Notes under the pieces: generated by a model
What the model saw: the letters and a program-made list of their open reading frames with translations, nothing else
Told to the model about the DNA's origin: nothing
Databases searched by the model: none
Position numbers and translations under genes: made by a program
Part shown: positions 38,840 to 54,740 of the stretch, one piece after another
Numbering within the stretch: the stretch's first letter is position 1
Layout: every line of letters starts with the position of its first letter
Source of the DNA: Gemmatimonadales bacterium
Lineage (GTDB): Bacteria > Gemmatimonadota > Gemmatimonadetes > Gemmatimonadales > GWC2-71-9
Length of the DNA: 64,000 bases
NCBI GenBank assembly: GCA_025937755.1
Contig: JAICQR010000001.1
Location: 1,542 to 65,541, forward strand
Reading direction: 5' to 3'

Positions 38840-39490
38840 CTAGACTAACCCTTCGGTGACCGCGTAGCGAACCAGGGCTGCGGTGCTGTTAAGCCCCAGA
38901 ATGTGCTTGATCCTTGCCCGATGGAACTCAACTGACCGGGCGCTCAACCCCAGCTCTTCGGCGATTTCCTCGGCGGTCCGGCCCCGGGCAATCATCACCA
39001 GCACCTCCCGCTGGCGCGGCGTCAGGGCCGTCAGCCCCCCCGTGGCGGGGTGGCCCCTCGGGTCGAGCCGGGCCTGCAGCGCCTCGGCCTCCTCGAGCGC
39101 GGGGGTCAGGTACTTCCGGCCCGCCATCGCCTCGGCGATGGCAAGGCGCAGCTCCTCGGCCCTGGCGCTCTTGAGCACGTAGCCCAGCGCACCCACCTTG
39201 ATCGCCTCGTCGGCGTAGATCCGGTCGGCATGCATGGTCACGATCACGACCGCGACCTCGGGATGCTGCTTCCGGATGTCGGCGCAAATTTCGAGACCGC
39301 TCCGTCCCGGAAGCGAAAGGTCCAGCAGCACCACGTCCGGCTTGAGCCGTGTCACCGCACCCAGCGCGCTCCTCCCGTCACCCTCCACACCGACGATGTC
39401 GTGATCCGCGTTCAGCATCGCGCTGATGCCCTCCACCATGAGCGCGTGGTCATCCACCAGCAGCAGGCGGGGTCGCGCCTTCATGTCGGC
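38840..39490 (-). CDS. NarL/FixJ-type response regulator (REC + LuxR HTH)
   Basis: Trimmed to Met33 (MKARPRLLLVDDHALMVEG..DVVLLDLSLPGRSG). LTPRQREVLVMIARGRTAEEIAEELGLSARSVEFHRARI. The upstream (GA)n extension is translated microsatellite. Confidence 0.9.
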   Translation of the reverse strand, partial: ADMKARPRLLLVDDHALMVEGISAMLNADHDIVGVEGDGRSALGAVTRLKPDVVLLDLSLPGRSGLEICADIRKQHPEVAVVIVTMHADRIYADEAIKVGALGYVLKSARAEELRLAIAEAMAGRKYLTPALEEAEALQARLDPRGHPATGGLTALTPRQREVLVMIARGRTAEEIAEELGLSARSVEFHRARIKHILGLNSTAALVRYAVTEGLV

Positions 39491-40344
39491 TCCATATCCG
39501 GCCCGGGCTCGAGCTCCGGCTCCGGCTCCGGCTCCGGCTCCAGCTCCAGCTCCAGCTCCGGCTCCAGATCCTTCGACGGTGCCCACGCGGTCACTCGGGT
39601 GCCGCCGCCCGGCGTGGAACGGATCATCACCCTTCCCTGCACCAGCTCCAGCCGCTCACGCAGACTGGTAAGGCCGAGGCCGGCCTTGGACGCGGCCGCC
39701 GAGGGATCGAACCCGACGCCGCCATCTTCCACTTCCAGCGTGATCCCGTCGGCGTCGGCCCTGAGCCGCAGATCCGCCGAGCCGGTGCCGGCGTGGCGCT
39801 GCACATTGCGCAACGATTCCTGGGCCACCCGGTACAGGGCAGTCGCCATCGGTTCGCGGACGGTCCGGGCGCCGGTGGCGACCGACACTCTAACGTCGAG
39901 CCCCTGAGCCTGGAACTCCGACCCCAGCTGCACCAACGCCGCCGGCAGCCCCAGGTGGTCCAGTGCCGCCGGATGCACCCGATGGGCCAGCCCCCGGATG
40001 CCGCCGGCCAGTTCGTCCAGCTCACCCCGGATTGCCGCCAGACGTCCGAGTGCCGGTGCCGGTGCCGGCTCGGCGGCGTCGTCCTTTTCGAGAACTTCCA
40101 GCTCGTGGCCCAGCATCGCCACTCGCTGGATGATGTCGTCGTGCAGCTCCCGGGCGAGCCACGCCCGCTCCTCTTCCTGGGCCGCGAGCAGCCGTCCGCC
40201 GAACCCCTTGGTGGCCGCCAGGAATCGCCGCTGCTGGATCACCACCGACGCGACGAAGGCCAGGCTCAGGATCAGGCCAACGACGACTGCGGCAACGAAG
40301 ACCCACCAGATCTGGTTCGTTCCTGTTGGCACCGGATCGCCCAC
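39481..40344 (-). CDS. HisKA_3-type sensor histidine kinase
   Basis: One N-terminal TM (IWWVFVAAVVVGLILSLAFV). H-box ARELHDDIIQRVAML. HATPase region GLGLTSLRERLELVQG. GTG start. (EP/EL)n C-terminal tail. Confidence 0.85.
   Translation of the reverse strand: MGDPVPTGTNQIWWVFVAAVVVGLILSLAFVASVVIQQRRFLAATKGFGGRLLAAQEEERAWLARELHDDIIQRVAMLGHELEVLEKDDAAEPAPAPALGRLAAIRGELDELAGGIRGLAHRVHPAALDHLGLPAALVQLGSEFQAQGLDVRVSVATGARTVREPMATALYRVAQESLRNVQRHAGTGSADLRLRADADGITLEVEDGGVGFDPSAAASKAGLGLTSLRERLELVQGRVMIRSTPGGGTRVTAWAPSKDLEPELELELEPEPEPEPELEPGPDMEPT
39513..39566. repeat. Hexamer microsatellite (GCTCCG/GCTCCA x9)
   Basis: Lies inside the 3' end of the kinase gene and encodes ..LEPELELELEPEPEPEPELEPG. 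It ends 23 nt upstream of the regulator start. Confidence 0.9.
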
Positions 40345-41285: not shown

Positions 41286-43721
41286 TCAGGAGGGTTCTCG
41301 GGAAAGCAGCGCCAACGCGTCACGGATCTTCTGCTGGTGTTCGGCCGCATCCTCCCGCCCCGACATCTCCCACTGGCGGAGCGCGCTCCGATAGAGCGAA
41401 TCGGCCCGGGAGAGTCGCCTGGTCTTGCCGTACAGCTCGGCCAGGGCCTGCTGAGCCTCGGCGATGTAATAGCTCGTGGGCTCGAGCGCCCTCTCCCGGA
41501 TGCGCAGCGCGGTGGTCAGGTGAGCTTCGGCACGCGCCAACCTGCCCAGCTCGAGCTGGGCCACACCGATCGAATGATGGGTGGTGGCAATGAACGGATG
41601 ATCAGGTGACAGTGACTTCTCCCGGATGACCAGTGCCTGCTCCAGCAGCGGAATCGCCTCGGCGCTCCTCCCCATCCGCGTCAGGGTGTTGGCCCTCGCC
41701 GTGAGGACGGCTCCAACGTGCGGATGCTCCGCGCCCAGGGCTTTCTCAAAGATCACCTGGGCCCGTTCGTACTCCTTCAGGGATTCCCCGAAGCGGCCTA
41801 CCTCCGAAGCAACGTTGCCGAGATTGTAGTGGTCAACGCCCGCCTGCATGTGATCCGGGCCGTAGGCCTTGATCTTGACGGCGAGCGCCTGATGGTAGAG
41901 CGAATCCGCTGCGGTGAACTTGCCCTGCTCGAACAGCGAGCTCGCCAGCCCGCTCATCGCAGCCGCCACCCCGGTCGAGTTGGCGCCATCCGCCCGAAGT
42001 CTGCTGGCCAGCACCTGCCGGAACAGTGATTCCGCAGCTTCCGGTTTACCCTGCTCCGCCTGCGATGCCGCCAATGTCCAAGTCTGCTCGGTCACGTCCT
42101 CGTGGTCGGCACCCAATTGCTCCCGCAGCATCCCGAGCCGGAGGCGCGCGACCGAGTCAGACTCCTGAAAGCGACCCTCGCCCCGGTACGTCTCACTCAG
42201 CACCTCCAGCGTCCATGCCAGGTCCACCTGCTCAGCATCGGCCTGGCCTGCAAGTCTGATTGCGCGCACCAGGGCTGATTCTGCCCGGGGGTAAAGCCCC
42301 TGTTCCTTGTAGAGCGAACCCAGCGACGTCAGGCTGGAAGAAAGGCCGGCGCTGTTGTCGCCCGGCAGGCTCTCCCGTATCGCCAGCGAACGATCCAGCA
42401 GCCGCTCGGCCTCGGCATATGCTCCCAGCTGGGTGTACACGCCGCCGATGGTCCGCATCAGCCGCGCCTGCACCTCCGGCTGCCCTGACAGCTCCCGGTC
42501 CAGTCGCACCGCACCGGAATCCAGAATCTCGCGCGCGGTGATGGCATCGCCCCGGGCACGGTCAGGTCTCGAGATGTTGAACAGTCTCACCAGGAAGTTG
42601 GACACTTCGTCTGCGGTCGCTGCTTCACGTACAGCCCGCTCGTTGGCGCGGGTCGCACGGACGAAACCCGTAACCGCCGCGCCCGCTCCCACCAGGAGCG
42701 CCGCCACCACCGCCGCACCCGCCAGCACCAAGATCCGGTGCCGACGGACAAACTTTTGCAGCCGGTACGTCGCTGTGGGCGGGCGAGCATGCACCGGCTC
42801 GTGCGCCAGATAGCGTCGCAGGTCATTGCCAAGCCCGGACGCCGACTGGTACCGGCGGTTCCGGTCCTTGTCCATCGCCGTCATCACGATCCAGTCGAGA
42901 TCACCCTTCAGCTCCCGGCGGAGGTGATCGGCACTGGTGCTGCGCAATGTGGCGATCGGGCCCTGGTCACCTGCCAGCGTCGTGACCTTGTGACTCGGCA
43001 GCGGTGGGTCGGTGGCGCGCTGCGCCAGCCGGGCCAGGAAGGCCTGAAGGCCGCGCTCCGCCGGATCCTCCGGCAGTCGGCCCACCAACAGCTCGTACAG
43101 CATCACGCCGAGGCTGTAGATGTCGGTCCGGGTATCGACGTCGAGCCCCGAGCGCTCGGCCTGCTCCGGGCTCATGTAGGCCGGCGTGCCGATGGTCTGC
43201 CCCACCATGGTAACCATGGTGCGCTCGGTGAACTGTGCACCGGTGGCCTTGGCGATCCCGAAGTCGATGATCTTGGGCACCGGCCTGCCGTCGGACTCGG
43301 TGACCATCACGTTGGAAGGCTTGAGATCGCGGTGGATCACGCCCTTCTGGTGGGCATGCTGCACCGCGTCGCATACCGGCCGGAAAAGTTCCACCCGCTC
43401 ACGAGTGGAGAGCTTCCGGCTGTCGCAGTACTCGGTGATGGGGATGCCCTTCACCAGTTCCATCACGAAATAGGGACGGCCGTCGTCGCTGGCGCCGGCG
43501 TCGAGCACCTTGGCGATCGACTCGTGGTTCATCACCGCCAGCGCCTGCCGCTCCGACTCGAACCGCGCCAGGATGTCGCGCGACTCCACTCCCCCGCGCA
43601 CCACCTTGAGTGCCACCCGCCGCTGCACCGGAGCGGTCTGCTCTGCCTCGTAGACCGTCCCCATCCCGCCTTCTCCCAGGATCTGGAGAATGCGGTAGGG
43701 TCCGATGCGTTCGAACGTCAC
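41286..43721 (-). CDS. Ser/Thr protein kinase with TM segment and C-terminal TPR repeats
   Basis: GEGGMGTVYEA..VALKVV, HRDLKPSNVM, DFGIAK, SPEQ. TM ILVLAGAAVVAALLVGAGAAV. Many TPR-like units. Confidence 0.9.
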   Translation of the reverse strand: MTFERIGPYRILQILGEGGMGTVYEAEQTAPVQRRVALKVVRGGVESRDILARFESERQALAVMNHESIAKVLDAGASDDGRPYFVMELVKGIPITEYCDSRKLSTRERVELFRPVCDAVQHAHQKGVIHRDLKPSNVMVTESDGRPVPKIIDFGIAKATGAQFTERTMVTMVGQTIGTPAYMSPEQAERSGLDVDTRTDIYSLGVMLYELLVGRLPEDPAERGLQAFLARLAQRATDPPLPSHKVTTLAGDQGPIATLRSTSADHLRRELKGDLDWIVMTAMDKDRNRRYQSASGLGNDLRRYLAHEPVHARPPTATYRLQKFVRRHRILVLAGAAVVAALLVGAGAAVTGFVRATRANERAVREAATADEVSNFLVRLFNISRPDRARGDAITAREILDSGAVRLDRELSGQPEVQARLMRTIGGVYTQLGAYAEAERLLDRSLAIRESLPGDNSAGLSSSLTSLGSLYKEQGLYPRAESALVRAIRLAGQADAEQVDLAWTLEVLSETYRGEGRFQESDSVARLRLGMLREQLGADHEDVTEQTWTLAASQAEQGKPEAAESLFRQVLASRLRADGANSTGVAAAMSGLASSLFEQGKFTAADSLYHQALAVKIKAYGPDHMQAGVDHYNLGNVASEVGRFGESLKEYERAQVIFEKALGAEHPHVGAVLTARANTLTRMGRSAEAIPLLEQALVIREKSLSPDHPFIATTHHSIGVAQLELGRLARAEAHLTTALRIRERALEPTSYYIAEAQQALAELYGKTRRLSRADSLYRSALRQWEMSGREDAAEHQQKIRDALALLSREPS

Positions 43722-44240: not shown

Positions 44241-44999
44241 TCAGGTATGCCGCCGAGAGAAGATCTTCACCAGCTTGCCCACCGGATCGAACGCGTCATC
44301 GACCACTCGCTCCTTGAGCGGGATGATGGCGTTGTCGGTGATGGTGATGTGCTCCGGACACACAGCGGTGCAGCACTTGGTGATGTTGCAATACCCGATG
44401 CCGTGCGCCTGCCGCAGCTCGGGGATGCGGTCCTCGGTGTCGAGCGGGTGCATCTCCAGCGCCGCGGCATATACCAGGTAGCGCGGGCCGATGAATTCGT
44501 CGTGCTTCTGGTGGTCGCGCAGCACGTGACACACGTCCTGGCACAGATAGCACTCGATGCACTTCCGGAACTCCTGCACCCGGTCCACGTCCGACTGCGC
44601 GATGCGCCAGGTGCCGTCCGGCGCGTCGGGCTCCCGCGGCTTGAACGGCTTGATCCCCTGCTTCACCCGGTAGTTCCAGCTGACATCGGTGACCAGGTCG
44701 CGCACCAGCGGGAACGCCTTCATCGGCTCGACCGTAACCGGCTGGCTCATGTCCAGTTCGTTCAACCGTGTCATGCACATCAGTCGCGGCTTGCCGTTGA
44801 TTTCGGCCGAGCACGAGCCGCACTTCCCCGCCTTGCAGTTCCATCGCACCGCGAGGTCGTTGGCCTGCTCGGCCTGGATCTGGTGCACCGCATCCAGCAC
44901 CACCATCCCTTCCGACACCGTCGTGGGATAGTCCGCGAATCCGCCGCCCGACGCATCGCCCCGCCAGATCCGGAAGGTCGCCTGGGTTTCCTGTTGCAT
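44241..44999 (-). CDS. sdhB: Succinate dehydrogenase/fumarate reductase iron-sulfur subunit
   Basis: Cluster motifs CKAGKCGSCSAEINGKPRLMC, CIECYLCQDVC and CNITKCCTAVCP. Confidence 0.9.
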   Translation of the reverse strand: MQQETQATFRIWRGDASGGGFADYPTTVSEGMVVLDAVHQIQAEQANDLAVRWNCKAGKCGSCSAEINGKPRLMCMTRLNELDMSQPVTVEPMKAFPLVRDLVTDVSWNYRVKQGIKPFKPREPDAPDGTWRIAQSDVDRVQEFRKCIECYLCQDVCHVLRDHQKHDEFIGPRYLVYAAALEMHPLDTEDRIPELRQAHGIGYCNITKCCTAVCPEHITITDNAIIPLKERVVDDAFDPVGKLVKIFSRRHT

Positions 45000-45000
45000 C

Positions 45001-46908
45001 TCAGCGCACCTCCAGAACGAGGGTCCTGGTCCAGGGAACCTCGGAATACGGCCCGGACAATATCAGCCGCAGCGAGTCGCCCTGGCGCGGCACAATCTCG
45101 AAGTCCGCGGTTTCTCCCGGCCCGGTGAGCAGCGTCGCCCGACGAGACACCGCCCGCGCCGGCGGCAAATCAGCGCCATCCTTGGCCAGGGGCCGCCAGC
45201 TCGTCACCGTCGTATCTCGCACCAGCTCGAACAGCACCCGCTGATCGGCGTTGATATTGATCAGTCGCAAACGATTGGGCCGGCCGGCCGCCACTCTGAG
45301 CGGCCTCGGCGATTCGTGCCCGTTCACCAGCCCGGCCGCCGAGTCCCGGAAGGTGGGTCCGTCGAGCCCGACGATCACGAGATGGTCGGTGTCCGGGTCC
45401 GGTGTCGTGCCCGGTTCCACCACCAGCAGCGCTCCGTACAGACCCATTGCCAGCTGGGTCATCTCGTTGGCGTGCGCGTGGTAGATGAACGTCCCCGAGC
45501 GGGGTGGCGTGAACTCGGCGACGAACGAATCCCCCGGCGCTATCGGTGCCATCACCTTCGGCAGGATGCCGCTCCAGCCGGGGACGCCGTCGGGGTAGCT
45601 CTCGAGCTCGATGCCGTGCCAGTGGACGCCGCTGGGCTCGGCCAGGTTGTTGACTACTGTAATCCGGACTGGCTTGCCCCGTTCCAGCACCAGCCTTGGC
45701 CCCGGAATCTCGATCGAGTCCCGGCGAAGATCCGCGTCCTGCGGAATGACGAAGCCATAGCCGGCGGAGTCGCCGAAGCGACGGGGCGACGACTGCAGCA
45801 GCAGCCGGATCCTGCGGGCGGAATCGGTCTTCGCGGCGGCCTGCCACCCGTCGGGCACCGGAACCCGGATGCCCATGACCAGCCCGTTCATCGCGCGCTC
45901 CGCTGTGTGCTGGTGCGGCAGGCCCGAGGAGTCACCCCTTGCCGCGGCTTCCAGCGCGAGGTTGCCGGTGAGCGATGCCAGCGGCGACACGTGAAACGCG
46001 AAGTGGCAATGGAGGATCCAGTTGCCCGGCTGGCTCGGGGCCCAGCGCATCGCCATTGTGTTCCACGGCAGCATCAGTTCGGTGACCATCTGCGGCCGCG
46101 CTCCCGCCGCAAACAGCGTGTCCTGCAGCCAGTCACCCCGGCTCGCGAGCTCAAAGTAGAATCCGTGCAGGTGCATCGGATGCGAGCTGTTGGTGGGGTT
46201 GACCCAGCGCCAGGTCACGCTGTCGCCCAGCGCCACGTCCAGCCGCTCGGTGTTGGGCCACGACTTGCCATTGATCACCATGATGTCGCGCGGCGGCAGG
46301 TCTGGTGTGACCGAGTCTGGCGCCTGCGACCACATGCCCATCACGAACACCCGGTCGTCGGTGTTCGCTCCAACCGAATCCACCACCAGCGCGCCGCCCA
46401 GCTGGCTATCGCTCCCGGTCCTGTCGCCCGCGTCGTTGCCCAGGAGGTTCGCGGCGTAGAAGTAGGTGCCCGGCGTGCCCGCGAGAAATTCCACTGTCCG
46501 CTGCTGGCCCGCCGGCACCACTACCGAATCCGCAGCATTGCCCGGGCGCGACATCAGGCCGTGCACCACGATGGTGGAATCGGCCAGCGTATTCCTGACA
46601 CGGATGCGGATGGTGGTGCCTTCCGGGACCCGGATCAGCGGCGAGGGGATCTGCAGTGCACCGCCTGCTTCCCGGAATGCCAGCAGGTCAATCGCCGGGC
46701 CATCGTCCGCGTCCGGCTGCCAGGAGCCGCGGTCCACTTCGAGGTTCAGCGTGAGAACGCCAGCAGCGAGGCTGCCGGCCGCAACGCGGTTGGCGTGGGT
46801 CTCGATGGACGGCAGCCCGGTGCTCGAGCGCAGCGCGCCGCAACCAGCGGCCACCAGGCAGGCACTGCCGAGGCCCAGCCACGCACTGATAGCCCGAAAG
46901 CCTATCAT
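45001..46908 (-). CDS. Four-cupredoxin-domain multicopper oxidase lipoprotein (permuted ligand order)
   Basis: Lipobox LGSACLVAAGC. HPMHLHGFYFE and NWILHCHFAFH in the second quarter. VHWHGIEL and IYHAHANEMTQLAMGLYG in the third quarter. The first and last quarters are cupredoxin-like without His pairs. Confidence 0.75.
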   Translation of the reverse strand: MIGFRAISAWLGLGSACLVAAGCGALRSSTGLPSIETHANRVAAGSLAAGVLTLNLEVDRGSWQPDADDGPAIDLLAFREAGGALQIPSPLIRVPEGTTIRIRVRNTLADSTIVVHGLMSRPGNAADSVVVPAGQQRTVEFLAGTPGTYFYAANLLGNDAGDRTGSDSQLGGALVVDSVGANTDDRVFVMGMWSQAPDSVTPDLPPRDIMVINGKSWPNTERLDVALGDSVTWRWVNPTNSSHPMHLHGFYFELASRGDWLQDTLFAAGARPQMVTELMLPWNTMAMRWAPSQPGNWILHCHFAFHVSPLASLTGNLALEAAARGDSSGLPHQHTAERAMNGLVMGIRVPVPDGWQAAAKTDSARRIRLLLQSSPRRFGDSAGYGFVIPQDADLRRDSIEIPGPRLVLERGKPVRITVVNNLAEPSGVHWHGIELESYPDGVPGWSGILPKVMAPIAPGDSFVAEFTPPRSGTFIYHAHANEMTQLAMGLYGALLVVEPGTTPDPDTDHLVIVGLDGPTFRDSAAGLVNGHESPRPLRVAAGRPNRLRLININADQRVLFELVRDTTVTSWRPLAKDGADLPPARAVSRRATLLTGPGETADFEIVPRQGDSLRLILSGPYSEVPWTRTLVLEVR

Positions 46909-46912
46909 ACGT

Positions 46913-48727
46913 TTACCGATTCTCCTCGATGATGGTGGCCAGCTCCGCCGTCATCTGCGGAATGGGACGGCGCTCGAGTTGCATTGCACCATCCGCACCC
47001 TTGCGCACCAGGATATTGAACGAAGCGAAGGCATCGTCCTTTGACGGATAGTCATCCCGGAAGTGACCACCCCGGCTTTCTTTCCGTTCCAGCGCCGATC
47101 GGGTGATTGCCTCGCTTACGGTGAGCAGGTTGTCGAGGTCGAGTGCGGTGTGCCAGCCCGGGTTGTACTCCCGGTTGCCGCCGGTGCCGGTGCGGCCTGC
47201 ACGCACCCGCAGCTGCGCGATCCGTTCCAGCGCGGTCTGCATGTCGCTTTCGGTTCGGACGATGCCCACCAGGTCCTGCATCGAGTCCTGCAGGTCGTGT
47301 TGCACCTGGTACGGCGCCTCGGCCGACGCGCCCCGCTCGAACGGCTCCAGCGTCCGCGTGGCCCATTGGTCCACTTCCGCGCGGTCCACCGTGCCCGCGG
47401 AATGCGACGCCGCCCACACGGCGGCGTGATGCCCGGCGCGCTGCCCGAACACCAGCAGATCGGACAGCGAGTTGCCGCCCAGCCGGTTGGCGCCGTGGAG
47501 CCCGGCCGCCACTTCTCCGGCCGCGAAAAGCCCGGGCACGCTCGACATCTGAGTGTCGCCATCCACATTCACCCCGCCCATCGCGTAGTGAGTGGTCGGC
47601 CCCACTTCCATGGGCGTGGTGGTGATGTCGATGTCCGCCAGCTGCTTGAACTGGTGGTACATGCTGGGAAGCTTCTTGCGAATTACCTCGGCGGCGTTGG
47701 GCAGCTTCTCCTTGATCCATGCAATGTCGAGGAAGACCCCGCCGTGCGGGCTGCCCCGGCCCTCGCGCACTTCGCGCATGATGCAGCGGGCCACGTGATC
47801 GCGGGTCAGCAGCTCGGGTGGCCGGCGGGCATCCTTGTCGCCCTGGACGTAGCGCCATCCCTCCTCCGGCGTGTCCGCGGTCTGCGAGCGGTAGTTCTCG
47901 GGGATGTCGTCGAACATGAACCGCTTGCCTTCGCTGTTCACGAGAATGCCACCCTCACCTCGCACGCCCTCGGTCACCAGGATCCCGCGCACGCTCGGCG
48001 GCCACACCATGCCGGTGGGATGGAACTGCACGAACTCCATGTCCTTGAGTTCGGCGCCGGCGTGATACGCCAGCGACTGCCCGTCACCAGTGTATTCCCA
48101 GCTGTTGCTGGTGATGCGGAATGCGCGGCCGATTCCCCCGGTGGCGAGCACGATCGCCTTGGCGCGGAACAGCCGGAAGCGGCCCCGCTCGCGATCGTAG
48201 CCGAATGCGCCTGCGACCCGGTCGCCGTCCTTGAGCAGGGTGACGACGGTGACTTCCATGTGGACGTCGATCCCCTGATGCACGCCGTGGTCCTGCAGGG
48301 TGCGGATCATCTCCAGCCCGGTGCGGTCGCCCACGTGGGCCAGGCGGGGATACTTGTGGCCGCCGAAGTTGCGCTGGAGGATGCGGCCATCCGCGGTCCG
48401 GTCGAACAGCGCGCCCCATGCCTCGAGTTCGCGCACCCGGTCCGGTGCCTCTTTCGCGTGCAGCTCGGCCATCCGCCAGTTGTTCATGTACTGGCCGCCC
48501 CGCATGGTGTCGGCGAAGTGCACCTTCCAGTTGTCGCGATCGTCCACGTTGGCGAGCGATGCGGCTACGCCGCCTTCCGCCATCACCGTATGGGCCTTGC
48601 CTAGAAGGGACTTGCACACCAGCCCGACCGAGGCGCCACCGGCCGCTGCTTCGATGGCCGCGCGCAGGCCCGCGCCCCCGGCGCCGATCACCAGCACGTC
48701 GTGTTCGTGGGTCTGGTAGTCGGCCAT
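46913..48727 (-). CDS. sdhA: Succinate dehydrogenase/fumarate reductase flavoprotein subunit
   Basis: ORF 46913..49465 trimmed to MADYQTHEHDVLVIGAGGAGLRAAIEAA (the start overlaps the sdhC stop as TGATG). HPTG and HYAMGG motifs. Confidence 0.9.
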   Translation of the reverse strand: MADYQTHEHDVLVIGAGGAGLRAAIEAAAGGASVGLVCKSLLGKAHTVMAEGGVAASLANVDDRDNWKVHFADTMRGGQYMNNWRMAELHAKEAPDRVRELEAWGALFDRTADGRILQRNFGGHKYPRLAHVGDRTGLEMIRTLQDHGVHQGIDVHMEVTVVTLLKDGDRVAGAFGYDRERGRFRLFRAKAIVLATGGIGRAFRITSNSWEYTGDGQSLAYHAGAELKDMEFVQFHPTGMVWPPSVRGILVTEGVRGEGGILVNSEGKRFMFDDIPENYRSQTADTPEEGWRYVQGDKDARRPPELLTRDHVARCIMREVREGRGSPHGGVFLDIAWIKEKLPNAAEVIRKKLPSMYHQFKQLADIDITTTPMEVGPTTHYAMGGVNVDGDTQMSSVPGLFAAGEVAAGLHGANRLGGNSLSDLLVFGQRAGHHAAVWAASHSAGTVDRAEVDQWATRTLEPFERGASAEAPYQVQHDLQDSMQDLVGIVRTESDMQTALERIAQLRVRAGRTGTGGNREYNPGWHTALDLDNLLTVSEAITRSALERKESRGGHFRDDYPSKDDAFASFNILVRKGADGAMQLERRPIPQMTAELATIIEENR

Positions 48728-49530
48728 CAGAAGATCCTCACGTCGTGCCAGATGCCCATCGAACAGAGCCGCACATAGATGTCGGCGAATGCCACGCTGA
48801 ACAGGCTGAACCAGGCCCACTTCGGGTGCCAGCGATTGAGGCAGCTGGTGCAGTCGTAGGCCGCCTTCCGCACCGGGCGGCCCGCAAGACGGTCGAGATA
48901 GCCGCCCACAATGTGTCGCAGTGAGTGGCACCCCAGCGTGTAGAGGGCCAGCAGGACGGTGTTGGTGGCGAGGATCAGCGTCCCCACGCCCATGCCGAAC
49001 TCCTTGACGCCGGTCGCCGGATCCACAAACCACAGCGCCTTCCACACATCGCTCGCGAGGATCACCAGGAAGACAAGAGCGATGTAGAGCAGGTACCGGT
49101 GCACGTTCTGCAGCACCAGCGGGAGGGTGCGTTCGCCCAGATAGGTCTTGCGTGGCTCGCCCACGGTGCAGGCGGGCGGATCGGCCCAGAACGCCTTGTA
49201 GTAAGCGCCGCGATAGTAGTAGCAGGTGACCCGGAACAGCCCCGGGAAGGGCAGGATGATCAGCGCCGGCGAAAACGGGAGGAAGCCCGGCCACCAGCCC
49301 GGTTTGGGGCCGAACCAGCTGTGCGCCGAGTCGCCGAAGAGGACCGGAGAATAGAAGGGAGAGAGGTAGGGCCCGAACTCGTAGTGCGCGTTCTGGAAGG
49401 CGGCCCAGGTGGCATATACAATGAAGGCCGTCAGGATGATGAAGACCACCACCGGCTGGACCCACCAGGCGTCCCGCCGCATCGTCTCGCCAAAGCGGCG
49501 CCGGGTGAGCTGAACGAGCGCGTCAGCCAT
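48727..49530 (-). CDS. sdhC: Succinate dehydrogenase membrane (cytochrome b-like) subunit
   Basis: A 5-6 TM protein directly coupled to sdhA. The assignment rests on position and topology, not on a motif I can name. Confidence 0.6.
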   Translation of the reverse strand: MADALVQLTRRRFGETMRRDAWWVQPVVVFIILTAFIVYATWAAFQNAHYEFGPYLSPFYSPVLFGDSAHSWFGPKPGWWPGFLPFSPALIILPFPGLFRVTCYYYRGAYYKAFWADPPACTVGEPRKTYLGERTLPLVLQNVHRYLLYIALVFLVILASDVWKALWFVDPATGVKEFGMGVGTLILATNTVLLALYTLGCHSLRHIVGGYLDRLAGRPVRKAAYDCTSCLNRWHPKWAWFSLFSVAFADIYVRLCSMGIWHDVRIF

Positions 49531-51938: not shown

Positions 51939-52012
51939 CTAGTGGGAAGTGGGAAGTGGGAAGTGGGGTCACTTCTCACTTCCCACTTCTCACTTCTCAC
52001 TTCTCACTTCCT
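51938..52012. repeat. ACTAGT-(GGGAAGT)4 array plus inverted (ACTTCTC)6 arm
   Basis: ACTAGTGGGAAGTGGGAAGTGGGAAGTGGGG-tc-ACTTCTCACTTCCCACTTCTC... lies between convergent stops (51938 and 52011). Confidence 0.9.
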
Positions 52013-52649
52013 ACTGCTCGTTGGCTGTCGGATACGGGGCCGCCGGATACTTCCCGATCTTCTCTTCGGTGTACTCGCTGGCCCAGAAGTCGGGCGGGCC
52101 GTCGCTGTCCTGCACTTTGTTCACCACCGGCTTCACCCCCCGTTTCAGGTAAGCGGCGATGGCCCAGAGCTCGTCATCCGACATGTGCCGCCACGACGGC
52201 CACGGCATCGGTATGGCCAGGTACTTCGGGATCTCGGGAAAGTTGCCGACGCCCGGCGTGTTTCCGGTGATCTCGACGTCCGGCGTCTCGCCCGGGCGCA
52301 GCCCGAAGCGCAGCGCATTGAAGATCTGCCGCTCACTGAACCGGCCAATGCCGGTGGTGTTGTCCGGGGTGATGTTGCGGGGTCGGGTGATGAACGGCCC
52401 GACGCGGAAGTCCTGAAGCGTGTCCATCCTGCCCGCCAGCCACCCCTTGGCCTCGGGGTTGTTCTGCCCGCCATGGCAATCCCCGCACGCGTGACTGATC
52501 ACCAGCTGCCGGCCCCACAGCACCTGCGAATCCACTGCGGCCTCACGCTCGGTTACCGGCCTCCCCTCCAGCGGCCTGGACACGAGTGCGACGACCGCTC
52601 CCAGCAGACACACACCAGCTACAGCGCCAAGCCAAGTAGTCTTACCCAT
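52011..52649 (-). CDS. Membrane-anchored mono-haem c-type cytochrome
   Basis: Trimmed to Met23 (MGKTTWLGAVAGVCLLGAVVAL anchor). Haem site HACGDCHGG. Confidence 0.75.
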   Translation of the reverse strand: MGKTTWLGAVAGVCLLGAVVALVSRPLEGRPVTEREAAVDSQVLWGRQLVISHACGDCHGGQNNPEAKGWLAGRMDTLQDFRVGPFITRPRNITPDNTTGIGRFSERQIFNALRFGLRPGETPDVEITGNTPGVGNFPEIPKYLAIPMPWPSWRHMSDDELWAIAAYLKRGVKPVVNKVQDSDGPPDFWASEYTEEKIGKYPAAPYPTANEQ

Positions 52650-52680
52650 ACGCTTCGCTCCGGTTGCTTGTTGGCGAACC

Positions 52681-52725
52681 TTCCCACTTCCCACTTCCCA
52701 CTTCCCACTAGTCACTTCTCACTTC
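52681..52725. repeat. ACTAGT-(GGGAAGT)4 array (minus-strand G-rich) at the MCO / cytochrome c junction
   Basis: TTCCCAC x4 then TAGTCACTTCTCACTTC. ACTAGT contains the MCO TAG stop. Confidence 0.9.
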
Positions 52726-54105
52726 AAGTATCCCCATCATCCCATGGTCCTCATGGTCCAGGATGTGGCAATGGAACATCCATTTGCCGGGGAAATCATC
52801 GTACGTCACGATGAACCGCGCCGTCTCGTGCTTCGGCACGTTCACCGCATCCTTCCAGCTGGCAAACGGCTCTGGTACGCCATTCCTGTCGATCACCTGG
52901 AACCGGAACCCGTGAAGGTGGAAAGGATGGTCCATCCCCACGAGGTTCTCGACCTGCCAGATCTCGGTGGCGCCGACCGTGGAGCTGACGTCCACCCGAG
53001 ACATGTCCATCTGCTTGCCGTTGATGAGACCCTGGGACAGCACAACCACGCGAGTTGCCGTTGCCAGCGCGGTGTCGATCCGCTCGACCTTCCGCAGCGT
53101 TGGCGGCAGCATCGGCGGCGTCATTGGCGTGTCGGCGCTGTAGGTGAGCGTCGCGAGTCCGCGGGTCTGGTTCCAGTTGTCCGGCCGGGTCTGCGGGACG
53201 TAGCGATCATAGGGCAGCGCCTGCAGCACGGTGCTGCTTCCGGGCGCGCCGGTGCCTCGCACCAGGAACTCGACCCGTTCCGACGGCGAGACCAGCAGTT
53301 CCGCGACTTCCACCGGCCGCTCGAACAGCCCGCCATCGCTGCCAACGTGCAGCAGTGTCTGCCCCGCCAGCGCCAGCCGGTAGCTGCGGCCGGCCGAGGC
53401 GTTGATCACCCGCCAGCGCTGGACCTCGCCGCTCCGGATGGTGAGCGTTGGCATGACTTGGCCATTCACCAGCAGCAGTTCACCTTCGCGCCCGTTCTCC
53501 CGGTCGCGTCGGCCGTGCATCGAGTGCGGATCGGGGAGATCGATCTCGCCTGCCTCTGTCAGCCGATTGTCCGACAGGATCAGCACCTGCTCCGGCAAGG
53601 CAGCCAATGGATCGTCGGCCGCCCGGACGACGATGGCGCCGTAGAGGCCCCGCGCCACCTGCGGGCCGGTGCGGTGATTGGGATGCGGATGGTACCAGTA
53701 GGTGCCGGCGGTGCCGCGCGGAACAGTGAAGCGGTACTCGTAGGTCTCGCCTGGCGCGACTGGATGGAAGGGGCTTCCATCCGCATCGAACGGAACGTGA
53801 AAGCCGTGCCAGTGCACCGTGGTTTCGACCGGCAGGTCATTGCGGAAGGTGATGACGACCTCGTCGCCCTCGAAAAACTCGAGCGCGGGGCCGGGCACAG
53901 TGCCATTGTAACTGAAGACTGGAGTTGAGGTTCCGGCCCTGAGAGCAAGGCTGGACCTGGCAGCAGTGAGGGAGACTTCAACCTTGCGCGGTTCGACTGG
54001 GGCAACGTCAGGCGACAGCTGCGCCCGCGCTGCCCCCGCGACCGCGGTGCACGCCAGTACTGCCATCCATGGCGCGACCGACAGGGGGGTCACGATGCGC
54101 CTCAT
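52708..54105 (-). CDS. Canonical three-domain multicopper oxidase (CueO/laccase-like)
   Basis: Motifs in canonical order: TVHWHGFHV, YWYHPHPNHRTGPQVARGLYG, DHPFHLHGFRF, MFHCHILDHEDHGMMG. N-terminal signal. Confidence 0.85.
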   Translation of the reverse strand: MRRIVTPLSVAPWMAVLACTAVAGAARAQLSPDVAPVEPRKVEVSLTAARSSLALRAGTSTPVFSYNGTVPGPALEFFEGDEVVITFRNDLPVETTVHWHGFHVPFDADGSPFHPVAPGETYEYRFTVPRGTAGTYWYHPHPNHRTGPQVARGLYGAIVVRAADDPLAALPEQVLILSDNRLTEAGEIDLPDPHSMHGRRDRENGREGELLLVNGQVMPTLTIRSGEVQRWRVINASAGRSYRLALAGQTLLHVGSDGGLFERPVEVAELLVSPSERVEFLVRGTGAPGSSTVLQALPYDRYVPQTRPDNWNQTRGLATLTYSADTPMTPPMLPPTLRKVERIDTALATATRVVVLSQGLINGKQMDMSRVDVSSTVGATEIWQVENLVGMDHPFHLHGFRFQVIDRNGVPEPFASWKDAVNVPKHETARFIVTYDDFPGKWMFHCHILDHEDHGMMGILEVRSD

Positions 54106-54182: not shown

Positions 54183-54740
54183 CTACTTCTCACTCCCCAC
54201 TTCCCACTTCCCACTTCCCACTGTTTTCACGCCCAGCCATATCGAGGCTGCGACGATCACCCACGCCACGAACCTCACGTCCCGGGCCAGGGTCAGGTCC
54301 TGGTCCAGCTTCCCCCAGGTCGCCAGCAGGAAGGTCCAGTCATGCTCGCCGCCGCCCACCAGCGGGAGCTCCTGGGCCCGGGCGTCCGCCACATAGCGGG
54401 CGATGTTCCAGAAGTTCTGCCCCACCCACCAGAGCGCCACGCTCGCGGCATGCCGGTCCTGATTTCGCCAGAACGACACCACGAACGCCAGCGGCAGAAT
54501 CAGCTGAAACAATGTGCCACCGAGCGCGGTAAGGACGTCCCCGCCCCACCCGAATACCAGGTGCCCCGTCTCGTGGATCGCCAGGTTCAGGGCATCGGGC
54601 AGGTGGAAGCGTGATGGCGTCAGTCCGCACCATACGCCGTACACCGCCAGCAGGCCGGTGAGCGCCAGACGCCACCGCCGTTCCGTGATACCGAGGTTGC
54701 TATTTTCGGTGATGCCGACTTCCGAAATCCCACTGCGCAT
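54183..54740 (-). CDS. Membrane protein with HExxH motif (M50B-like putative metalloprotease)
   Basis: AIHETGHLVFGWGG and 4-5 TM segments. The start is uncertain (54755 TTG or 54740 ATG). The last codons are translated GGGAAGT repeat (VGSGKWEVGSEK). Confidence 0.5.
   Translation of the reverse strand: MRSGISEVGITENSNLGITERRWRLALTGLLAVYGVWCGLTPSRFHLPDALNLAIHETGHLVFGWGGDVLTALGGTLFQLILPLAFVVSFWRNQDRHAASVALWWVGQNFWNIARYVADARAQELPLVGGGEHDWTFLLATWGKLDQDLTLARDVRFVAWVIVAASIWLGVKTVGSGKWEVGSEK
54185..54226. repeat. (GGGAAGT)n family array (minus-strand G-rich)
   Basis: ACTTCTC ACTCCCC ACTTCCC x3 ACTGTTT. Confidence 0.9.

Follow-up and report, generated by a model that had tools for sequence, protein, structure and literature searches.

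In a 2026 paper, multicopper oxidases (MCOs) are described as having two, three or six cupredoxin domains, with the trinuclear copper cluster of the two-domain enzymes shared between neighbouring protomers, one contributing domain 1 and the next domain 2 (PMC13151041). Among the six-domain forms, the trinuclear histidines belong to domains 2 and 3 both in the ferroxidases of Chlamydomonas and Dunaliella (Fox1) and in every bacterial six-domain MCO analysed (MnxG-like), the latter having their sole type 1 (T1) copper site in domain 2 (Vasin 2013, PMC3600357). Here we describe an MCO with four cupredoxin domains (D1 to D4), encoded at 45001-46908 on the reverse strand of a 64,000-nucleotide stretch of DNA from a Gemmatimonadales bacterium (assembly GCA_025937755.1, contig JAICQR010000001.1, positions 1,542 to 65,541; the whole stretch is hereafter the window). 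Taking its sequence, a structural model and analogy with known enzymes together, we consider it quite probable that this protein is an exported four-copper oxidase with its T1 site in D2, a trinuclear cluster formed within a single chain at the D2/D3 junction, and an (N-C)x2 architecture, i.e., a tandem pair of units each composed of an N-type and a C-type cupredoxin domain.

The copper layout itself is already known. An earlier note on this DNA, made from the sequence alone, had recognised in it no described class of MCO; however, the same placement of T1 in domain 2 and of the cluster between domains 2 and 3 has been reported for the MnxG-like MCOs and Fox1 (PMC3600357). It is the four-domain form of approximately 630 amino acids that is apparently undescribed. 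Such proteins would have been excluded from the screen that established the layout of the six-domain enzymes, because that screen kept only sequences of more than 800 amino acids (Vasin 2013, PMC3600357). Our own search of the literature for MCOs or laccases with four domains, four cupredoxins or a circular permutation brought up nothing relevant, its coverage being incomplete and the undescribed status probable rather than proven. On balance, we lean towards regarding the family as a fourth, previously undescribed MCO architecture.

Domain anatomy and copper ligands

The gene, its domains and its principal motifs are as follows:

45001..46908, reverse strand: four-domain MCO gene, 635 amino acids, stop codon at 45001-45003 (from the list of open reading frames (ORFs) and Pfam)
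46840..46908, reverse strand: Sec-type signal peptide with candidate lipobox, residues 1-23, VAAG-C23, with a second candidate at C17 (regular expression, and alignment with 'LLASC' of the relative P0004)
46363..46809, reverse strand: D1, N-type cupredoxin that has lost the trinuclear ligands, residues 34-182, with the vestiges VVH116GL and TYFYA152AN154 (weak Pfam matches, hhalign)
45880..46362, reverse strand: D2, C-type, residues 183-343 including the linker to D3, with T1 and four trinuclear histidines (Pfam Cu-oxidase_2)
46162-46182, reverse strand: HPMHLHG motif of D2
45991-46011, reverse strand: HCHFAFH motif of D2
45394..45879, reverse strand: D3, N-type, residues 344-505, with four trinuclear histidines and D440 (Pfam Cu-oxidase_3)
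45613-45624, reverse strand: HWHG motif of D3
45472-45480, reverse strand: HAH motif of D3
45004..45393, reverse strand: D4, ligand-less C/M-type cupredoxin, residues 506-635, all-beta in the AlphaFold2 (AF2) model with a predicted local distance difference test score (pLDDT) above 90

The ORF is uninterrupted, and a protein database search recovered an identical protein (P0001) from a public 2.9-Mb contig. In MCOs, the Pfam domain Cu-oxidase_2 is normally C-terminal and Cu-oxidase_3 normally N-terminal. In this protein, Cu-oxidase_2 matches residues 207-308 (E 5e-25, 88 bits) and Cu-oxidase_3 residues 400-498 (E 2.3e-33, 115 bits), both well above the gathering cutoff, while residues 92-154 give a weak match to Cupredoxin_1 and D1 also gives weak matches to Cu-oxidase_3. 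The motif scan returns the same order: H243-P-M-H246-L-H248-G and H300-C301-H302-F-A-F-H306 come first, followed by H429-W-H431-G and H477-A-H479. The T1 ligands, H243, C301 and H306, all lie in D2, and the trinuclear histidines are divided between D2 (H246, H248, H300 and H302) and D3 (H429, H431, H477 and H479). The full MCO complement of ten histidines and one cysteine is thereby present, in HxH, HxH, HxxHxH and HCHxxxH motifs. The NCBIfam MCO models all score far under their cutoffs (e.g., 120 bits against 479 for copper_res_A), and the generic public names of family members are explained by no curated NCBIfam model coming near its cutoff.

These results bear out most of the anatomy proposed in the earlier note. 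It had placed the HPMHLHG and HCHFAFH motifs ahead of the HWHG and HAH motifs, while allowing that domain models might show the normal 1-2-3 order instead; both Pfam, with Cu-oxidase_2 before Cu-oxidase_3, and the motif scan give the order it had read. The four cupredoxin-like quarters that it described are borne out by Pfam, the AF2 model and hhalign taken together. Its view that IVVHGL and TYFYAAN in the first quarter are degenerate agrees with an alignment of the profiles of the two halves, in which H116 pairs with H429, A152 with H477 and N154 with H479. So too does its statement that the last quarter is ligand-free: D4 has no ligand residues, and in the same alignment the position equivalent to HPMHLHG is devoid of them. 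As for the trinuclear site that it set between domains 2 and 3, the complete ligands are indeed confined to D2 and D3, and a site at their interface is the most plausible arrangement.

Conservation of the copper site

All 11 copper ligands, along with W430 and D440, are invariant in a 60-sequence alignment of the family, as they are in 138 full-length, diverse representatives reaching down to 36% identity, of which 136 keep the HPMHLHG/HCH-before-HWH/HAH order. We take D440, which lies in an HWHG-x7-DG context, to be the counterpart of the catalytic Asp112 of CueO. The vestigial H116 of D1 is retained in only 63 of the 138 sequences. The invariance of the ligands is the outcome of strong purifying selection on a complete T1 and trinuclear site rather than of chance.

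Internal duplication and structural model

Profile-profile alignment establishes that the two halves of the protein are homologous and colinear (residues 85-237 against 399-551, probability 97%, E 1.1e-10). The strongest pair of single domains is D1 and D3 (hhalign probability 95.6%, E 1.3e-8), and their alignment runs on to cover the opening strands of D2 and D4, the start of D4 being colinear with that of D2. Since the halves are homologous and colinear, and since the first unit has lost the ligands of its N domain and the second those of its C domain, the architecture appears better described as (N-C)x2, a tandem duplication of a two-domain unit. The earlier note's term 'permuted' is apt for the order of the motifs, whereas the tandem duplication fits the protein better than a permuted three-domain enzyme does.

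The AF2 model, computed from a 60-sequence family alignment, is confident, with a mean pLDDT of 86.9 and a predicted template modelling score (pTM) of 0.87. It is almost all beta-strand and comprises four beta-sandwich domains: D1 at residues ~34-182, D2 at ~183-307 followed by a helix-and-loop linker to ~343, D3 at ~344-505 and D4 at ~506-635. Foldseek searches of the PDB place six-domain cupredoxin proteins (factor V/VIII, ceruloplasmin and MnxG) at the top: ceruloplasmin 4enz matches across the whole query with a query-normalised TM score (TMq) of 0.62 and a root-mean-square deviation (rmsd) of 6.0 A, MnxG 9bxa_A with a TMq of 0.61, and the four-domain factor VIII A1-A2 heavy chain 4bdv_A with a TMq of 0.57 and a target-normalised score (TMt) of 0.58. 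Three-domain MCOs and laccases match only about two domains, with a TMq of ~0.33 and an rmsd of ~16 A. Judging from an rmsd of 6-7 A across the entire query, the four domains are predicted to be arranged as four consecutive domains of the ceruloplasmin ring, which is to say two-thirds of it. In that modelled ring arrangement, the D2/D3 junction would be the pseudo-symmetric equivalent of the ceruloplasmin D6/D1 junction with its trinuclear cluster.

Sequence searches of the PDB with single domains trace their affinities. D1 finds domain 1 of Cu nitrite reductases and of two-domain laccases as its best matches, while for D2 ceruloplasmin domain 6 ranks first, ahead of the second domain of two two-domain MCOs (3g5w and 2zwn). 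The stretch formed by D3 and D4 can be aligned without a break to domains 1-2 of three-domain MCOs, and D3 also corresponds to domain 1 of two-domain MCOs; D4 alone returns no significant PDB sequence match.

Certain features tell against an intra-chain site at D2/D3 in an otherwise conventional oxidase. The Foldseek output does not identify the four domains matched in each six-domain target, and the TM scores of ~0.6 to these proteins are only moderate. We infer the convergence of the eight histidines at D2/D3 from the pTM, the global superposition and analogy, and a domain-swapped or partner-completed assembly may instead exist. In addition, the axial position of T1 is variable (Leu in 27, Gln in 22, Ala in 15 and Met in only 5 of the 138 representatives), and the last T1 histidine is preceded by Phe or by a variable residue, as opposed to the Glu/Asp of CueO and ceruloplasmin. 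Both the delivery of protons and the chemistry of the substrate may thus depart from those of textbook MCOs.

Comparison with known multicopper oxidases

The closest parallel in copper layout lies with MnxG and Fox1, which share with this protein a sole T1 in D2, trinuclear histidines in D2 and D3, and HxxHxH and HCH motifs ahead of HWH and HxH; MnxG also has a similar overall fold arrangement. However, MnxG and Fox1 have six domains and more than 1200 amino acids, in contrast to the four domains and ~630 amino acids seen here, and the protein is thus no six-domain MCO, although it would function in the manner of their D1-D4 portion. Nor is close sequence kinship to MnxG apparent in PDB sequence searches: it is absent from the top 60 matches both of phmmer with the single sequence and of the family profile, and the family lies nearer to laccases. 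The best global structural matches are ceruloplasmin, hephaestin and the A domains of factor V/VIII (rmsd 6-7 A, TMq ~0.6). Ceruloplasmin shares the alternation of N- and C-type cupredoxin domains, and its domain 6 is the closest in sequence to D2, but its trinuclear cluster joins its domains 1 and 6 and its T1 sites lie in domains 2, 4 and 6, whereas the four-domain protein has ligands only in D2 and D3, a single T1 and two-thirds of the ring.

With the two-domain MCOs (type B SLAC/mgLAC and type C NeBCO) and the Cu nitrite reductases, the protein has in common that each of its halves is an N-C unit; as in the type B enzymes, T1 is in the C-type domain, and, as in the two-domain enzymes, the cluster would lie where the N domain of one unit meets the C domain of an adjacent one. 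The two-domain enzymes differ in being homotrimers of ~300-350 amino acids per chain with three inter-chain clusters, each chain supplying both halves of the ligands, while the present protein has two fused units that have lost complementary halves of the ligands and has no third unit. Three-domain MCOs (laccase, CueO and CotA) share with the four-domain protein its four ligand motifs and the conserved Asp that follows HWHG; their domains 1-2 are the homologues of D3-D4, and their domain 3 that of D2. Against their N-M-C arrangement, with the cluster between the first and last domains, stand the reversed motif order and the extra N-terminal domain of the four-domain protein. A Met-rich segment of the kind found in cuprous oxidases is absent from it.

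The family, its distribution and its export

A word-indexed protein search listed 120 matches, and among these all are of ~600-690 amino acids, or fragments or fusions, and all show PF07731 ahead of PF07732. Their public names include 'multicopper oxidase domain-containing protein', 'FtsP/CotA-like' (a generic JGI label) and 'manganese oxidase', the last of which, given by JGI to some members, is annotation transfer only. An exhaustive search at E <= 1e-30 yielded 637 family representatives after clustering at 50% identity, the best 150 of which are, without exception, single end-to-end matches. A length of ~600-670 amino acids is stable in the family. At least 578 GTDB species-genome loci encode a relative; the best 80 of these come nearly all from Gemmatimonadota, with a few from Acidobacteriota.

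Longer members are fusions (with an S9 peptidase, amidohydrolase, alpha/beta-hydrolase, pectin acetylesterase, AhpC or PD40 domain) or carry non-cupredoxin tails. No fifth or sixth cupredoxin domain occurs in any of the 150 representatives examined, longer members included, and the idea that the latter are five- or six-domain intermediates was accordingly dropped, their extra parts being hydrolase, redoxin or propeller domains or non-cupredoxin tails. The 1672-amino-acid P0220, considered as a MofA/MnxG-like protein, was similarly set aside as a hydrolase fusion. We also observed the four-domain module fused in P0050, P0159, P0171, P0188, P0220, P0223 and P0244, with the partners among these seven proteins being beta-lactamase-like, PD40 propeller, S9 peptidase, AhpC/TSA, alpha/beta-hydrolase plus pectin acetylesterase, and amidohydrolase domains. 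Such hydrolase and redox fusions may hint at an organic substrate, or may be gene-calling fusions. Elsewhere, tandem paralogues of the four-domain MCO occur in two loci (L002, 5125-8948, and L053, 1021-6749), and in another (L048, 5001-9158) a 733-amino-acid MCO with the canonical motif order lies directly downstream of the four-domain gene.

Signal peptides are general across the 60 family members surveyed, with a lipobox in 17 and a twin-arginine translocation (Tat)-like signal in 2. In the protein from the window, VAAG-C23 fits the lipobox pattern [LVI][ASTVI][GAS]C (a PROSITE-style regular expression), and the close relative P0004 has a classical LLAS-C. The lipoprotein signal (AAGC) that had been read from the sequence is hence plausible here, with C23 as the candidate lipidated residue, but it is specific to this lineage rather than a family trait. 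In this lineage, the enzyme is probably lipid-anchored.

Proposed mechanism and substrate

In the catalytic scheme that we favour, the first unit keeps only the C-type (D2) ligands and the second only the N-type (D3) ligands; because D2 and D3 hold complementary sets of trinuclear histidines, a single trinuclear cluster is predicted to form within one chain at the D2/D3 junction. The counterparts of this junction would be the subunit interface in two-domain MCO trimers and, in the MnxG/Fox1-type oxidases, the D2/D3 site. D1 and D4 would serve as copper-free scaffolds, and together the four domains would fill all but two places of a six-membered, ceruloplasmin-like ring. The substrate would be oxidised at T1 one electron at a time, the electrons would pass to the trinuclear cluster over ~13 A through the H300-C301-H302 bridge, and O2 would there be reduced to water with the aid of the invariant D440. 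We infer the copper loading, the intramolecular geometry of the cluster, the monomeric open-ring state and the substrate.

With regard to the last, small organic reductants such as phenols or quinols, oxidised in laccase-like fashion, are our tentative suggestion, at slightly less than even odds, with metal ions, for instance Mn(II) or Fe(II), as the less likely option. The weak preference for organic reductants over Cu(I)/Fe(II) stems from the lack of a Met-rich segment, of an acidic residue before the last T1 histidine and of a conserved axial Met, together with the occasional hydrolase fusions.

Genomic context

The MCO gene is the third cistron of an operon for succinate dehydrogenase (SDH), with the order sdhC-sdhA-MCO-sdhB:

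48727..49530, reverse strand: sdhC, membrane anchor of the mycobacterial Sdh1 type, first gene of the operon (PDB 7d6v_C, E 3.7e-52)
46913..48727, reverse strand: sdhA, flavoprotein, upstream of the MCO gene (NCBIfam NF005866, 984 bits, above cutoff)
44241..44999, reverse strand: sdhB, iron-sulfur subunit, downstream of the MCO gene (NCBIfam NF009052, 412 bits, above cutoff; Pfam Fer2_3)

The gap between sdhA and the MCO gene is 4 nucleotides, with GAGGAG at a 9-nucleotide spacing ahead of the MCO ATG, and that between the MCO stop codon and sdhB is 1 nucleotide, with GGAGG upstream of sdhB. The two NCBIfam matches and these gaps confirm the position between sdhA and sdhB that had been assigned from the sequence alone. 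The anchor at 48727-49530 on the reverse strand has no Pfam or NCBIfam match; it is similar to the Sdh1 anchor of Mycobacterium smegmatis (7d6v_C), from which it follows that the genome carries an Sdh1-type enzyme. The 7d6v structure is one that we take to contain a membrane-embedded Rieske-type cluster.

The same insertion recurs in two independent metagenome contigs (L004 and L085), whose homologues are 83% and 76% identical. Among the 86 loci fetched (L001-L086, of which L005-L084 are 80 reference-genome loci), only these two, with relatives of at least 75% identity, share the sdh context; neither sdhA nor sdhB lies near the gene of the homologues at or below 58% identity (58% and ~50%) or in the 80 reference-genome loci. 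We accordingly rejected the sdh context as a trait of the family, confined as it is to relatives of at least 75% identity: the insertion is genuine and tightly coupled but lineage-restricted. The 76%-identical relative embedded in the sdh operon of L085 (5001-6908) is called as a 541-amino-acid product and a separate 78-amino-acid ORF, a split that may reflect a frameshift or misassembly, or else incipient decay of the inserted gene.

All-versus-all clustering of ORFs found no conserved operon partner (two-domain cupredoxin, chaperone or cytochrome) within ~5 kb, the best non-MCO cluster being present in 8 of 84 loci, and no MnxE/F-like neighbours across the same 84. Small upstream ORFs occur in 3 loci each of the 84 and are not conserved, and overlapping ORFs that had seemed 'conserved' were discarded as alternate-frame artefacts within the MCO gene. 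Ser/Thr kinases with TPR or beta-propeller tails, sometimes accompanied by a PP2C phosphatase, lie within 5 kb of the gene in 22 of the 86 loci, and one is also present in the window at 41286-43721 on the reverse strand; the window itself has a kinase/PP2C density of 1 per 64 kb, and the ~1 per 33 kb near family members is no clear enrichment. The window further contains, at 39481-40344 on the reverse strand, a histidine-kinase-like ORF with a low-complexity tail of Glu-Leu/Pro repeats, 'EPELELELEPEPEPEPELEPGPDMEP'.

A second MCO of 465 amino acids, at 52708-54105 on the reverse strand, was cited in the earlier note as an example of the canonical order, and rightly: the motif scan places its motifs as HWH 98, HPH 139, HLH 396 and HCH 445, and it has all three Pfam MCO domains. 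This CueO-like three-domain enzyme overlaps by 8 nucleotides the downstream gene at 52011-52715 on the same strand, the 234-amino-acid product of which has a CxxCH motif and weak Pfam matches to cytochrome c. Tandem arrays of the heptamers AGTGGGA/ACTTCCC, in 4-7 copies, flank this pair at 51941-52019, 52680-52725 and 54185-54222, and they translate to recurring 'GSGKWEVGS' and 'TSHFPLPTSHF' strings.

Alternative explanations

The affinities of D2 to D4 with three-domain MCOs raise the alternative of a circularly permuted enzyme of that kind, with domains in the order 3-1-2 and an extra degenerate cupredoxin domain at the N-terminus. Residues 401-603 are 31% identical to the canonical MCO of the window (E 5e-18), D3-D4 align contiguously with domains 1-2 of 6vow_A (391-601) and 2xu9 (391-606) while D2 aligns with domain 3, and the family is nearer in sequence to laccases than to MnxG. 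Nevertheless, such a history is unlikely, with D1 being N-type, pairing with D3 and aligning colinearly into D2/D4, as (N-C)x2 predicts, and with four domains, not three, superposing on ceruloplasmin and factor VIII. The two descriptions also overlap structurally, because the middle domain of the three-domain MCOs is itself regarded as C-type, reportedly by Graeff et al. in 2020. The factor VIII match, which extends over the full length of the model, might alternatively be taken to mean that the protein is a truncated six-domain oxidase in need of a separately encoded, ligand-less two-domain cupredoxin partner, as factor VIII A1-A2 is of A3. Two-thirds of a ring would leave two interfaces exposed for such a partner, but the survey of neighbours within ~5 kb in 84 loci brought no conserved candidate to light (leaving room for one distant in the genome), the small upstream ORFs are as sporadic as noted above, and the C-terminal extensions of longer members are not cupredoxin-like; we hold this reading to be decidedly improbable.

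Turning to the operon, the oxidase could be a functional partner of the Sdh1-type SDH in this lineage, e.g., as a menaquinol:O2 oxidoreductase anchored at the membrane, instead of being a passenger. Its embedding with such narrow gaps and its own Shine-Dalgarno sequences, the repetition of this arrangement in two independent contigs and the lipobox, which would put the enzyme at the membrane surface, all point that way, and laccases generally oxidise hydroquinones. Even so, we give this little credence: the context is shared by just those two loci, homologues of 58% identity or less are found in unrelated contexts, the relative in L085 may have suffered a frameshift or be decaying, and no sequence feature indicates quinol binding. 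The presence of two copper-free domains among the four, and the generic label 'FtsP/CotA-like' from JGI, could also suggest a non-catalytic cupredoxin scaffold akin to FtsP/SufI or an artefactual fusion of two genes. The chance of either is negligible: a scaffold is effectively refuted by the invariance of every T1 and trinuclear ligand in the 138 diverse sequences, and, with regard to a fusion, the ORF is uninterrupted and independent assemblies contain full-length, single-stretch homologues by the hundred.

Significance

A long-standing model of MCO evolution leads from a single cupredoxin to a two-domain trimer and on to a six-domain chain, with the three-domain enzymes derived along the way, and to our knowledge it lacks a natural intermediate. 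The four-domain family may be a living stage of duplication between the trimeric two-domain oxidases and the six-domain oxidases of the ceruloplasmin/MnxG type, working as an open two-thirds ring. A widespread family of this kind would supply the missing architecture, with an intact intra-chain trinuclear site where the subunit interface would otherwise be. It would also make testable whether ring closure is needed for catalysis, how redundant copper sites are lost after fusion, and whether six-domain enzymes arose via four-domain stages or the reverse.

In the lineage represented by the window, there is a very slim chance that the oxidase was recruited to the Sdh1-type SDH operon as a lipid-anchored enzyme at the periplasmic face, which would use O2 to re-oxidise either menaquinol or the anchor's distal redox centre; if true, this would constitute a short, copper-dependent respiratory branch from succinate to oxygen. 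More generally, the family resides mostly in Gemmatimonadota, a major soil phylum, and its recognition flags a large set of uncharacterised soil oxidases that have an unusual T1 site lacking a conserved axial Met and whose present annotations are generic or, by transfer, 'manganese oxidase'.

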